In this document: in pieces, positions 33 through 32,269 of the stretch
Position numbering within the stretch: position 1 is the first letter of the stretch
How the letters are laid out: every line of letters begins with the position of its first letter
Origin: Eledone cirrhosa
Lineage: Eukaryota
NCBI GenBank assembly: GCA_964016885.1
Contig: OZ024756.1
Span: forward strand, 18,724,001-18,788,000
Direction: 5' to 3'
Length of the DNA stretch: 64,000 nt
Notes under the pieces: model-generated
Seen by the model: only the letters and a program-made list of their open reading frames with translations
The model's database searches: none
Told to the model about the DNA's origin: nothing
Position numbers and translations under genes: made by a program

Positions 33-470
33 GTAAGTGAAGTGATACAGATAAGGTTCACTGAACCGTTCCACTTTGACCTTAGACCCCAGAAACTGCA
101 CTGGATGAATAGGAATTCGAAGAATACCAATTGATGAAGGAAGGACGGGGGTGGGTGGGTCGGTAGAGTGCATGGCAGTAAGGGGTGGCGGCGTGGTGTG
201 GGGGACTGCTGGTGGGTGGGCGGTGAAGATCTCAATGTGCTAATTAAGATAAGGGTAGAGTACAGAAGATGGAAGAAGGAAATAGATAGACAAGGATTAT
301 GATACGATACAAATGTAATGTATTTAATGTGATAGTAGTGTGATAATGAAGTAGGGGTAGTGGTGGGTGGGGTGGGTGGCGGTGGGTCGGGGGTGGGGAA
401 GAAGGATGGAAAGAAGGAAAGAAAAATAGAAAGGAAATGATGGAAAAGAAAAAGAAGGGATGATAGATAG

Positions 471-702
471 ATATCTTCCTTTATTTGCCACAAGGGCGTA
501 CAAAAAATGAGACATTACAAGACGTGATGGTGAGGTTTTACATAAAAATCATATAACATTAATGAATAACAATACACTATATATAAAATAAAATAATAAT
601 CGAAATCCCCAATAGTTACTGCGGGGTTGTTTTACACCCCGTGGATAGAACAACCCTCAACACCAGGAGCACGTTTTGTAGGTGTTCCTGTCTTCCCTCT
701 GG
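471..702 (-). mobile_element. Tx1-like LINE 3' UTR fragment (subfamily 2)
   Basis: Minus strand ends CCCTTGTGGCAAATAAAGGAAGATATCTATCTATC, like the other Tx1 copies; 5' junction abuts (GATA)n at 705-727. Confidence 0.75.
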
Positions 703-726
703 ATGATAGATAGATAGATAGATAGA

Positions 727-1672
727 TAAATTTCTTTATTAGCCACAAGGGCACAAAAGAAGGGGACAAATACAAATGGGGAATTTACATACAGGCATAT
801 GAAAATAAAACTATTAATAAAATAACAAATAACATTTGAAATCCCCAATAGGGGGGGGGGGGGGGGGCGTTACACAGGAGTTGTACACACCCCGAAAAAA
901 TGTACAACCCTGATCTCCAGGAGCACCAAGAGTGAGTACTCCCTTCCTCCCTTCCTCTCTTCCCTCAACCTACAGGCTTATATAGAGAGAAGGCCCAACC
1001 ACTCGGGCCATCTTTGTCACATTCACCCACCTTTTATAAAACTTGCTGGGGTACAGCACCTCTCTCTCCATCCTGATTCTTCTTCCAAAATGATATTTGA
1101 AAAAACGAATCAGTTGCTCGCCTGAGAGAAAGGTGTTTGACCTCAGCCCTTTTAACCTTGTCCACCATATAACCTCTTTCACCATAGCCATAACACAAAG
1201 GAAAACCGCCTCTCCCTCGTTTTTGAAGGAAGGTGGTGGTTTGATCATGACAATGGACTCTGTGGTCAACCGGATTGGTCCCACCCGCGACAATAGTCGT
1301 TCTACATAGCCCCACAGGTCGGTAACGCCCGGGCAGTGTACAAATGCGTGCGCAACAGTTTCCTCGTCGCGCACGCATCTCGGACAGATCTTTTTCGAAG
1401 GGTCCCTACCCGGGCGCCCGTGTCTGTAGAACTTGTCTCGAACTGGTAGAGCTCCTCGGTAGCACTGCCAGGCCAGGGACTTTTGGAAGTTGTCCATTGG
1501 TCCCGGGCGGAAGGTCCTACCGAACAGACTGGCCAGTTCGTCCTCCTCTACGCCTAGAGTTTCTCCGAGTGCGTCGTCGCACTTGCTGCGGACCAACCCT
1601 CTATAGAATGTCGAAGTGGAGTCTCCACTGATCGCCGGGTCCGTTTGCCAGAGGACTGTGAGCACCTGAGCA
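727..1672 (-). mobile_element. 5'-truncated Tx1/L1-clade LINE; ORF2 C-terminus (zf-RVT, CPRC...HAFVHC) at 970-1665 plus 3' UTR
   Basis: Intact 231-aa frame with CX2C-X7-H-X4-C zinc knuckle; 3' end GTGGCTAATAAAGAAA+(TATC)n; GATA repeats at both junctions. Confidence 0.92.
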
Positions 1673-1794
1673 GGTAGATTGATAAGTAGATAGATAGATA
1701 GAAAGAACGAAAGAAAGAGAGAAAGAAAGAAAGGATGGAAGATAGATAGGTAGGTACATAGGTTGGTAGGTAGGTTGGTTAGTGTGTATATAGA

Positions 1795-1845
1795 TATGTT
1801 TCTTTATTAGCCACAGGGGCACAAAAGAAGGGGACAATACAAAGG
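1795..1845 (-). mobile_element. Tx1-like LINE extreme 3' tip (~50 bp)
   Basis: TTTCTTTATTAGCCACAGGGGCACAAAAGAAGGGGACAA, identical to the 3' ends of neighbouring copies; lies in GATA repeats. Confidence 0.8.
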
Positions 1846-1998
1846 TAAATAGATAGATAGATAGAAAGAAAGAACGCAAATAAAAAACGAAGATAGATAA
1901 ATAGATAGAAATATATAAAGAAAGAAGGAAAGGAAGATAGAAAGATAGGTAGGTACATAGGTTGGTAGGTAGGTTGGTTAGTAGGTAGATAGATAGAT

Positions 1999-2378
1999 AT
2001 ATTTCTTTATTAGCCACAGGGGCACAAAAGAAGGGGACAAATACAAAGGGGGAAGTTTACATACAATAAAAACGTGTAAAATGTTATCACAAATGGAATT
2101 TAAAAAAGTTAGTCGATTTTCCCCAATAGAGGGAGACAGTTTATATGAGTAACACATACCCCCGAAAAGAAATGTGCAACCCTCATCTCCAGGAGTACGA
2201 AGAGTTTGTACTCCTTTCCTCTCCTCCTCCTTTTCCTCAACCTACAGGCTGATATAGAGAGAAGGCCCATTCACTCGGGCCATTCTCGCCACTTTCACTC
2301 ACCTTTCATAAAACTTGCTGGGGTACAGCACCTCTCTCTCCATCCTGATTCTTCTTCCAAAGTGGTATTTGAAAAAAA
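1999..2378 (-). mobile_element. 5'-truncated Tx1-like LINE (~380 bp)
   Basis: Last ~45 codons of ORF2 plus 3' UTR; (GATA)n on both sides. Confidence 0.9.
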
Positions 2379-2580
2379 ATAGATAGATAGATAGAAAGAA
2401 AGATAAATAGATAGAAATATATAAAGAAAGAAGGAAAAGAAGATAGAAAGAAAGAGAGGAAATGATGCAGTGCTAAAACAGAAAGCAAGAAAGAATGAGC
2501 AAAAGAAAATTAGAAAAATAATAAAATAAAAAAAAGAAAACAGTTATTTGAACTCTTAATTTCCTCTGTAAAATTGGAAG

Positions 2581-2609
2581 GAGTGCATCTCGCCCGAGGA
2601 AGGTTCTTG
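2581..2609 (+). CDS. Putative 29-bp host micro-exon
   Basis: ...TTCCTCTGTAAAATTGGAAG|GAGTGC...TTCTTG|GTGAGG; GC-rich island; open in all three frames when joined to 1-32 and 6671. Confidence 0.3.
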
Positions 2610-29745: not shown

Positions 29746-29982
29746 TAAAAGCTTCACGGCACAGGCATTGCTTTATATCTGGAGATCTCTCTGCACTTGT
29801 CGTCACATGGTACCATGGGCCTAGCACTATGTGTCAATAATTGTCACAAGTGTAGTGTCTGTACCAGAGTTTTCAAGTCGCTGGCTGGACTAAGGTCACA
29901 TTCGTTCAGCGCATCGGTAGGAGTTCTCCTACATGGATATAAAGTAGTGGCCATACTCGAAAACGAGTTGGCAGCCACCATG
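29746..29982 (+). mobile_element. RTE LINE 3' fragment with C2H2 finger and (TGTA)n tail
   Basis: HKCSVCTRVFKSLAGLRSH; ends TTGGCAGCCACCATG+(TGTA)n; starts inside the previous copy's tail. Confidence 0.7.
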
Positions 29983-30330
29983 TATATATGTATGTATGTA
30001 TGTATGTATGTATGTATGTATGTATGTATGTATGTATATATGTATGTATGTATGTATGTATGTATGTATGTATGTATGTATGTATGCATGTATGTATGTA
30101 TGCATGTATGTATGTAGGTAAGTAGGTATGCATGTATGTATATATGTATGTATGCATGCATGCATGCATGCATGCATGTATGTATGTATGTATGTATGTA
30201 TGTATGTATGTATGTATGTATGTATGTATGTATGTATGTATGTAAGTATGTATGTAAGTATGTATGTATGTGTGTATGTATGTATGTATGTGAGTAGGTA
30301 TGTGTGTATGTATCCATTGGGGAAGTTAAA

Positions 30331-30516
30331 ATAATTGTTTCTACTTTTGGCACAAGGCCAGCAATTACCCAGTGCATTACTGGTACTTTATTTTATCGAC
30401 CCCGTAAGGATGAAAGGCAAAGTAAACCTCGGCGGGATTTGAACTCAGAATGGCAAGGACCGTAACTCTATGCGTCAAAGCATGACGCCCGACCCTCTAC
30501 CGATACTGCCAATCCA
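30331..30516 (-). mobile_element. Meta-domain SINE
   Basis: Near full length; TSD AAAATAAT. Confidence 0.92.
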
Positions 30517-30711
30517 AAATAATGAATCTTTAGAATGTTTTACAAATCACTGTACCGCTAATCAATTGGATTTGAAGGACGCAAGTTTGCTTTGTTCTTT
30601 CTTTGTAAAACATAGCACGTCAAGGTTATTGCACATATCTGTTGTTACATGGCTAAGTGTATCTATGATAACGACTAAACATGAAAGTATCTACCCTGGA
30701 TATAAGAGCCG

Positions 30712-30915
30712 TAGTACTCCTGGAGATGAGGGTTGCACATTTTTTCGGGGGTATGTGTTACCCATATGAAATGTCTCCCCCTATTGGGGAAAATCGATTA
30801 ACTTTTAAATTGCATTTGTGATAATATTTTACACGTTTTTATTGTATGTAAACTTCCCCCTTTGTATTTGTCCCCTTCTTTTGTGCCCCTGTGGCTAATA
30901 AAGAATAAAGAACAT
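30712..30915 (+). mobile_element. Tx1-like LINE 3' UTR fragment
   Basis: Matches 16250-16450 reverse-complemented; TATC/TCCA tail. Confidence 0.88.
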
Positions 30916-30979
30916 CTATCCATCCATCCTTCCAACCATTCATATATCTATCAGTCTATCTATCTAGCTATCTATCTAG

Positions 30980-31372
30980 CAACAATTGATTCCCTTCTTT
31001 AAGTATCACTTTAGAAGGAGAATCAGGGTGGAAAGAGAGGCACCGCACCCCAGTAAATTTACTGAAAGGTGGGTGAATGAAGCGAAAATGGCCCGAGTGA
31101 TTGGGCCTTCTCTGTTTATAAACCTGTAGGTTGAAGAAGAGAGCAAAAGGAAGAAAGGAGCACTTGCACAACACGCTCCTGGAGTTGAGGGTTGTTCTAT
31201 CGACGGGGTATTAAACAAGCCATTTGTGGCGCCTCCCCGCTATTGGGGATTTCGATTGTTGTAATTGTTTGTTTTTATATTTTTTACACGACTGTATGTA
31301 AAATCCCCGGCATGTCTTTGCATTGTCCCCTTTTCTTGTTGCGCCCTTGTGGCTAATAAAGAAATATATCTA
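30980..31372 (+). mobile_element. Tx1-like LINE fragment, subfamily 2
   Basis: QQLIPFFKYHFRRRIRVEREAPHPSKFTERWVNEAKMARVIGPSLFINL*; TATC repeats on both sides. Confidence 0.88.
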
Positions 31373-31774
31373 TCTAGCTTTAAGAAAGATATCTTTCTAT
31401 CTATCTACCTGTTTATCTTCCTCTCGAACCACCCGCTGCCGTGTCTCCTGGTCTCTCAATATAAATGTCAATCCAGAAATCATATTTTCTCTCTTCGACT
31501 TTATCTCTACCTATCTCTCTCTCCCTCTCTCTCTTTATCTATCTAGCTGTCAATCTAAATCTATCTCTTCCTATCTCCCTCTCCTTCCCCACTCCCCGTC
31601 CCTCCCTCTATCTTCCTCTCTCCAACTCTATTTCCCCCATCTCTTTTTATCTACCTATCTATCTATCGATCTATCAATCTCTAAATTTATAGATATCTCT
31701 CCCATCTCTCTCCCCATTCCTCTTTATCTTTCTTCATCTCTCCCTCCATCTATCTATCTATCTATCTATCTATC

Positions 31775-32165
31775 TGATTTTTTTTTTTCAAATACCACTT
31801 TGGAAGAAGAATCAGGATGGAGAGAGAGGTGCTGCACCCCAGCAAGTTTTATGAAAGGTGGGTGAAAGTGGCGAGAATGGCCCGAGTGAATGGGCCTTCT
31901 CTCTATATCAGCCTGTAGGTTGAGGAAAAGGAGAAGGAGGGGAAAGGAGTACAAACTCTTCGTACTCCTGGAGACGAGGGTTGCACATTTTTTCGGGGGT
32001 ATGTGTTACCCATATAAACTGTCTCCCCCTATTGGGGAAAATCGACTAACTTTTTAAATTGCATTTGTGATAACAATTTACACGTTTTTTATTGTATGTA
32101 AACTTCCCCCTTTGTATTTGTCCCCTTCTTTTGTGCCCCTGTGGCTAATAAAGAAACATATCTAT
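31775..32165 (+). mobile_element. Tx1-like LINE fragment (~390 bp)
   Basis: FFFKYHFGRRIRMEREVL...; (TATC)n on both sides. Confidence 0.9.
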
Positions 32166-32269
32166 CTATCTATCCCCACCTCTCGCGCTCTCCCATCACT
32201 CTCTCTCTCTATCTTTTACCTCCTCCTAACTCCCCCCTCTCTCTCTGTGTTACTAAACTATATACATAA

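Follow-up and report, generated by a model that had tools for sequence, protein, structure and literature searches.

A probable Tx1-type LINE in the octopod Eledone cirrhosa with a probable preference for (GATA)n insertion sites

Copies of the element and their junctions

The stretch of Eledone cirrhosa DNA analysed here (assembly GCA_964016885.1, contig OZ024756.1, positions 18,724,001 to 18,788,000; 64 kb, hereafter the window) contains several copies of a long interspersed element (LINE), which an earlier note had described as a young, apparently (GATA)n-specific family of the Tx1 clade. A BLAST search of the window, together with a profile derived from the copies, gave nine 3' ends of one LINE lineage and one old internal fragment. 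Copies 1 to 9 are all truncated at the 5' side, to different lengths, and have one common 3' end, with terminus GTGG(C/T)(T/A)AATAAAG(A/G)A in all nine; a poly(A) tail was found at none of the nine 3' ends. The eight copies described earlier, with their differing truncations, are confirmed and have one 3' end in common; copy 9 lies beyond the range covered by the earlier note. No 3' end was found for the old fragment, which was excluded from every count since its junctions are undefined. The features, in window positions, are as follows (ORF2, second open reading frame; UTR, untranslated region; nt, nucleotides).

458..473, minus strand: duplication on the 3' side of copy 1, TATCTATCTATCATCC on the element strand, a 16-mer found exactly twice in the window
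474..700, minus strand: copy 1, 3' UTR only, divergent group with 54-68% identity to the others
701..716, minus strand: duplication on the 5' side of copy 1, inside the 3' (TATC)6 run of copy 2 (705-728)
729..1672, minus strand: copy 2, last ~234 ORF2 codons, open and with zf-RVT domain, plus 3' UTR; 87% identity to copy 5
1794..1846, minus strand: copy 3, a 53-nt 3' end
1986-1999 and 2380-2393: 14-nt TATC duplication of copy 4
2000..2379, minus strand: copy 4, main group, ~380 nt, with premature stop
16244-16253: 10-nt TATC run on the 3' side of copy 5
16254..17423, minus strand: copy 5, the longest, 301 open C-terminal ORF2 codons with zf-RVT (E 1.1e-6), plus 3' UTR
17424..17494, plus strand: (GATA)17 adjoining copy 5 on its 5' side; no 3' end of another copy lies next to it
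30714..30902, plus strand: copy 6, main group, part of the 3' UTR; 3' flank of ATCT/ATCC repeats
30969-30980 and 31367-31378: flanks of copy 7, TATCTATCTAGC on both sides, a 12-mer present four times locally
30981..31366, plus strand: copy 7, third group, 65-73% identity
31776..32158, plus strand: copy 8, main group; 28-nt TATC run at 31748-31775 and (TATC)4 at 32159-32174
45654-45669 and 45953-45968: exact 16-bp duplication of copy 9, ATTATTATAAAGCGTT
45670..45952, plus strand: copy 9, distant group with 54-60% identity; ORF2 end VNGPTLSTYL-stop, same 3' terminus
46553..46674, plus strand: degraded old ORF2 fragment of the same lineage, profile E 7.8e-6

A 5' junction was scored when an exact run of TATC period of at least 10 nt ended no more than 16 nt from it. 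This rule was chosen upon inspection of the data, the 16-nt distance being required for copy 2, whose 5' flank has a 16-nt TATC run at 14 nt from the junction. Seven of nine copies comply (all but 6 and 9), as against 568 of 128,000 strand-positions in the background (0.44%). All seven have TATC on the sense strand of the element, and six copies have it on that strand at both junctions. Copy 5 is flanked by GATA over 71 nt on the 5' side and 10 nt on the 3' side, a pattern that a tail cannot account for. The count of seven in eight given earlier stands under this rule, but its members do not represent separate events throughout, since copy 3 is most simply a duplicate and the 5' run of copy 1 is the 3' run of copy 2. 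Copy 3 was therefore merged with copy 4, giving eight independent events, six of which have TATC at the 5' junction. A strictest set of five, from which copies 1, 2 and 7 were also removed as having the 3' end of another copy within 122 nt of their 5' side, retains three with the run (4, 5, 8) and two without (6, 9).

As control, 53 segments of other dispersed repeats were collected by self-BLAST, with rough boundaries and excluding family segments and those shorter than 50 nt. None of their 106 junctions has a TATC run in either orientation (Fisher P 1e-8 against six of eight, 4.5e-5 against three of five). AGAT makes up only 15 of the 419 perfect microsatellites in the window, behind AT (137), ACC (88), AC (48), AG (36) and ACAT (30), none of which was found as an array at a 5' junction of the family; given this scarcity of AGAT, the junction pattern does not reflect a general taste for simple repeats. 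One sequence type occurs at six of eight events, in this window only, where Kojima (2015; PMC4494074) calls a Tx1 family target-specific when one type is found in >20% of flanks. These data argue for a preference in the window, at three of five against none of 106 junctions and in fixed orientation, but 'specific', as was originally proposed, is too strong a word given copies 6 and 9.

The 5' flank of each of eight copies (copy 3 excluded) was compared with each 3' flank. Exact self-matches measure 16 nt for copy 1, 14 for copy 4, 10 for copy 5, 12 for copy 7 and 16 for both copies 8 and 9, hence duplications of 10-16 bp surround six of the eight copies tested and are locus-specific in copies 1 and 9. 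The 16-mer of copy 1 includes a non-GATA interruption and occurs in the window only at the two ends of that copy. That of copy 9 is non-repetitive and indicates that this lineage duplicates about 16 bp of its target. Copy 2 was rejected as evidence for a duplication, its 11 of 13 matching nt being no better than matches across loci. The 3' TATC is, at least in part, duplicated target. Since the 3' runs of copies 1 and 7 match their own flanks, they were copied from the target, and the matches in copies 1, 4, 5, 7 and 8 suggest that much of the 3' run is target rather than a tail supplied by the element. The GATA repeats described earlier as a 3' tail are indeed present, with runs of 7-24 nt, but copies 3 and 6 have only some two TATC units. 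The earlier suggestion that the family propagates GATA repeats finds support solely in the 10-16 bp duplicated per insertion.

Copy 3 is most simply seen as a local duplicate of copy 4 with an internal deletion, and was rejected as an independent event, given blocks shared exactly with copy 4 and its flanks: 1744-1783 equals 1943-1982 (40 nt), 1847-1873 equals 2377-2403 (27 nt) and 1895-1931 equals 2401-2437 (37 nt). The idea that each tail is the next target applies to copy 1, which sits in the 3' run of copy 2 at 28 nt distance, but this is the sole such pair; the remaining neighbours are 79, 122, 154 and 409 nt apart, separated by mixed tetranucleotide repeats. Stacked copies appear mostly to share degenerate GATA-rich patches, not one another's tails.

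For evidence beyond the window, four sequencing runs were aligned to copy 5, with summed depths that are not copy numbers. In a restriction-site associated DNA (RAD) run the GATA-restoring base at position 16243 is found in 2,084 of 2,098 plus-mate reads (3,392 reads at 16276), but reads with other flanks would be clipped before this point. In this run 1,427 reads extend past the 3' end as (ATAG)n, with a median of 24 letters and agreement of 0.83. The GATA-restoring base is also present in 79, 3 and 91 contigs of organisms A, B and C, respectively. By these reads and contigs GATA usually adjoins the 3' end, often over more than the length of a duplication, but they do not separate target from tail. 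The long 3' runs fit insertion into long arrays and, equally, a templated tail or later expansion.

Sequence groups, coding state and relatives

Copies 4, 5, 6 and 8 form a main group with 95-97% identity. Copy 2, close to copy 5, has 75-81% identity to copies 4, 6 and 8; copies 7, 1 and 9 stand at 65-73%, 54-68% and 54-60% to the others. Identities thus separate the first eight copies into four groups (4/5/6/8; 2; 7; 1), and the two subfamilies recognized earlier were given up.

The 234 and 301 open codons of copies 2 and 5 both score above the Pfam cut-off for zf-RVT. Over 230 codons these copies have 33 synonymous and 23 nonsynonymous differences, and the ratio of nonsynonymous to synonymous rates (dN/dS) of 0.20 shows that selection acted on the source elements. 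A comparison of copies 4, 5 and 8 over 42 codons gives no synonymous and one to three nonsynonymous differences, unlike the largely synonymous divergence reported before. Neither are all ORF2 pieces intact, since copy 4 has a TGG to TGA stop. Nonsynonymous changes and a stop in the main group are as expected for decay following insertion, and this group appears fairly young.

The 5' truncation points of copies 4, 7 and 8 (2379, 30981, 31776) fall within ~15 nt of one another, in a T-run of ORF2; this shared zone could be a stall site of the reverse transcriptase (RT) or mark a short non-autonomous form. The 3' UTR of copy 5 has an extra 26-nt block (in 16454-16507) resembling the version of the adjacent segment in copy 2, possibly by recombination or template switch between groups. 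Folding of the 3' UTR is not better than that of shuffled sequences (z -1.43; 17 of 200). A dispersed repeat (15968-16188), with a long inverted repeat at ~16060-16190, directly adjoins the 3' flank of copy 5; pieces of it recur at 14688-14760 and 26831-26990.

The element is likely an L1-group LINE of the Tx1 clade, as assessed from sequence comparison. It displays the L1-group traits of variable 5' truncation, fixed 3' end and target-site duplications, and its C-terminal zinc-binding domain of ORF2 contains a CX2CX9HX4C motif; Tx1-clade elements have a zinc knuckle in ORF1. Four longer protein relatives have 58-66% identity, the closest named one from Argonauta hians, and Argonauta hians and Paramuricea clavata are the named organisms among ten clusters of relatives. 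Atlas clusters of relatives contain zf-RVT or RT. Full-length relatives of ~1,150 amino acids (aa) combine an apurinic/apyrimidinic (AP) endonuclease, APE, with RT and zf-RVT, and match human L1 ORF2p far above R2 (best solved structures: E 9e-69 versus 5e-16). Domains found are RT in relative P0005 (65% to copy 5) and all three in P0010 and P0007. P0005 scores 289 bits with a coral protein auto-named 'Transposon TX1 uncharacterized 149 kDa protein' versus 174 with human L1 ORF2p. The L1-group part of the earlier Tx1 assignment therefore stands, whereas Tx1 itself is probable, being favoured by bit scores. A DNA pattern of the 3' end gave 0 matches in each of the metagenome, viral and genome contigs; for the protein alignment these gave 34, 444 and 20 pattern matches, none of them confirmed.

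Mechanism and competing explanations

We consider it likely that this 5'-truncated L1-group, likely Tx1-clade octopod LINE inserts, in most of its sequence groups, preferentially into (GATA)n and in one orientation, led by its endonuclease. The TATC preference is common to four groups that are only 54-87% alike. Target-primed reverse transcription is the established model for such elements. An AP-type endonuclease would nick the GATA strand, probably at GAT/A, upon which the freed 3' end would serve as primer for the reverse transcription of an RNA that ends near AAUAAAGAAA. A second nick would follow at ~10-16 nt and the truncated complementary DNA would be joined to the target, often via a microhomology of 2-3 nt; by comparison with longer copies, copy 7 has AGC and copy 8 CT at this place. 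Each insertion would turn one GATA run into two and copy 10-16 bp, such that GATA-rich patches would gather repeated insertions. The duplication of copy 9 begins unambiguously with ATT, which places its cut at AAT/A on the nicked strand, the same AT/A step as in GAT/A. The GATA sites fit GAT/A, with A/G, one base over, being also possible; L1 also cuts at a T/A step. The preference does not extend to the whole lineage, since the group of copy 9 inserts at a different site.

Several results weigh against this explanation. Copy 9 has no TATC run at either side and lies in a non-GATA site, copy 6 has neither a 5' TATC run nor a duplication that could be found, and a (GATA)12 array at 53274-53322 is without a copy. 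The flanks are in part ambiguous: those of copy 2 match equally well across loci, copies 4, 5 and 8 are flanked by pure TATC, in which duplication and tail are indistinguishable, and the 12-mer of copy 7 is locally repeated. The 3' GATA runs in the reads, with about 12 units or more, exceed a 16-bp duplication, and a 5' junction with a flank from another locus was found in none of the best 24 of 2,442 rows of loose ends, nor was an empty allele seen, in an aligned stretch without the (GATA)17 run. Finally, the nine copies represent three clusters and one single copy in one window, which has no endonuclease domain of the element, the copies being too truncated to include AP endonuclease and RT.

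Targeting could instead be directed by RNA-DNA pairing, read-through transcripts with TATC annealing to nicks in (GATA)n and the 3' run being in part a templated tail. This would agree with the lack of poly(A) at nine of nine 3' ends, with the long perfect GATA runs past the 3' end in the reads and with copy 2, where the 3' run is perfect over 24 nt while the 5' flank is degenerate; the AT/A step at the non-GATA site of copy 9 is also what a loose nuclease would give. Yet the 3' run of copy 1 repeats its own 5' flank including the interruption, that of copy 7 has the local variant, and 3' runs in the window are short (7-24 nt, about two units in copies 3 and 6), by which we hold this route to be unlikely. 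Still less probable is a purely local history, in which tandem duplication, template jumps between RNAs and three GATA-rich patches produced the pattern without a genome-wide preference. It is true that copy 3 duplicates copy 4, that copy 1 abuts the 3' run of copy 2 and that two stacks contain seven of the nine copies. The 5' TATC runs of copies 4, 5 and 8, however, have no 3' end of another copy within 400 nt at that side, the own 16-bp duplication of copy 1 speaks for a separate insertion instead of a template jump, and stacked neighbours come from different groups.

Random insertion, followed by survival in microsatellite-rich neutral DNA or by seeding of it (passive accumulation or expansion from a junction seed), seems very improbable. 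The window is rich in perfect microsatellites (419), and passive accumulation near CA repeats has been proposed for Drosophila Waldo-A/B (PMC3812793). The process predicts association with the commonest repeats in either orientation, whereas TATC alone is found, on the sense strand alone, and at none of 106 junctions of other repeats. Returning to an endonuclease-led preference, a wider form of it, which we put forward tentatively and with more doubt than confidence, is that an octopod Tx1 lineage has kept a long-lived endonuclease preference for (GATA)n in four or more diverged groups while a sister group recognises another AT/A site, with high-copy splitting and duplication of GATA runs shaping the octopus microsatellite landscape. 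If true, this would provide a natural target-switch series for mapping tetranucleotide-repeat recognition by an AP endonuclease.

Comparison with known elements and other repeats in the window

Families of the Tx1 clade target (TC)n, (TTC)n, (TTCC)n and (TTTC)n; elements of further clades target ACAY, AC, TAA and TG repeats (PMC4494074, PMC3812793, PMC4640811). Kibi and Koshi, teleost fish families of the Tx1 clade, insert specifically into (TC)n and (TTC)n, respectively (PMC4494074, PMC3812793). The present family resembles them as a probably APE-type retrotransposon without long terminal repeats (non-LTR) in a microsatellite, and differs by its target (TATC)n/(GATA)n and its octopod host. 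Insertion of the Kibi/Koshi type was not found: the junctions have TATC, and none of the 36 AG and six AAG arrays of the window lies at a 5' junction of the family. Crocodilian Tx1 elements (Tx1-1_Crp, Tx1-5_Crp, Tx1-6_Crp, Tx1-1_Gav and Tx1-2/3/5/8_AMi) prefer (TTCC)n or (TTTC)n (PMC4494074), likewise tetranucleotide repeats but different ones. The same paper interprets tandem copies of SINEU-3 that sandwich a duplication as sequential insertions; GATA and TATC are absent from its main text, while its Fig. 3 and supplements may list a TATC target.

Among octopods and their relatives, L1-Tx1 has expanded in coleoids (PMC8967140), and in Octopus vulgaris 421 insertions belong to 13 L1-Tx1 families of recent activity (PMC13282606, Table 1); the present family may be one of these 13. 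Unlike the present description, these octopus annotations, of RepeatMasker type, give no target preference: the accessible text of PMC13282606 does not contain the words 'target' or 'GATA', nor that of PMC8967140 the word 'microsatellite'. The accessible parts of PMC9115989 and PMC10294476 contain nothing further on targets. A Tx1 family targeting GATA/TATC was not encountered in the open literature searched; Repbase, Dfam and subscription papers may hold one. On the evidence of one window, this is a real, probably GATA-preferring Tx1-type LINE, with a target that is apparently unreported and of a kind already known.

Waldo, Mino and Dong belong to the R1 and R4 clades. They are microsatellite-targeting non-LTR retrotransposons as well, with targets (ACAY)n, (AC)n and (TAA)n (PMC3812793), and the present element differs from them in target and in having relatives whose best-scoring solved structure is L1 ORF2p. 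How microsatellites are targeted is poorly understood (PMC3812793). If the preference is true, (GATA)n joins the known microsatellite targets of AP-endonuclease retrotransposons, and does so in a mollusc; the kind of system being known, the gain would be one further target and a test case, since related groups with GATA and non-GATA targets would allow direct comparison of the targeting mechanism. GATA is a common and widely used marker repeat, and GATA markers in these animals may have flanks common to many loci. For retrotransposon-based gene insertion it would add one more natural specificity.

The window also contains other repeats. A small dispersed repeat (27629-27690, 40546-40713, 50113-50302, 61334-61476, 62188-62377), several copies of which have a (TA)n run at either side, is possibly a (TA)n-targeting element. 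A second short repeat has two copies (23418-23530 and 62405-62519), each directly after a (TA)n run. The repeat at 37762-39561 has ends in inverted arrangement and a 184-aa frame (38319-38873, minus strand) without Pfam match, which by eye we take to resemble the GIY-YIG endonuclease of Penelope. Lastly, a 40-bp tandem repeat extends over 6903-8649 (43.7 copies, 92% matches) and is followed by a long GGT-rich compound array up to 11400.

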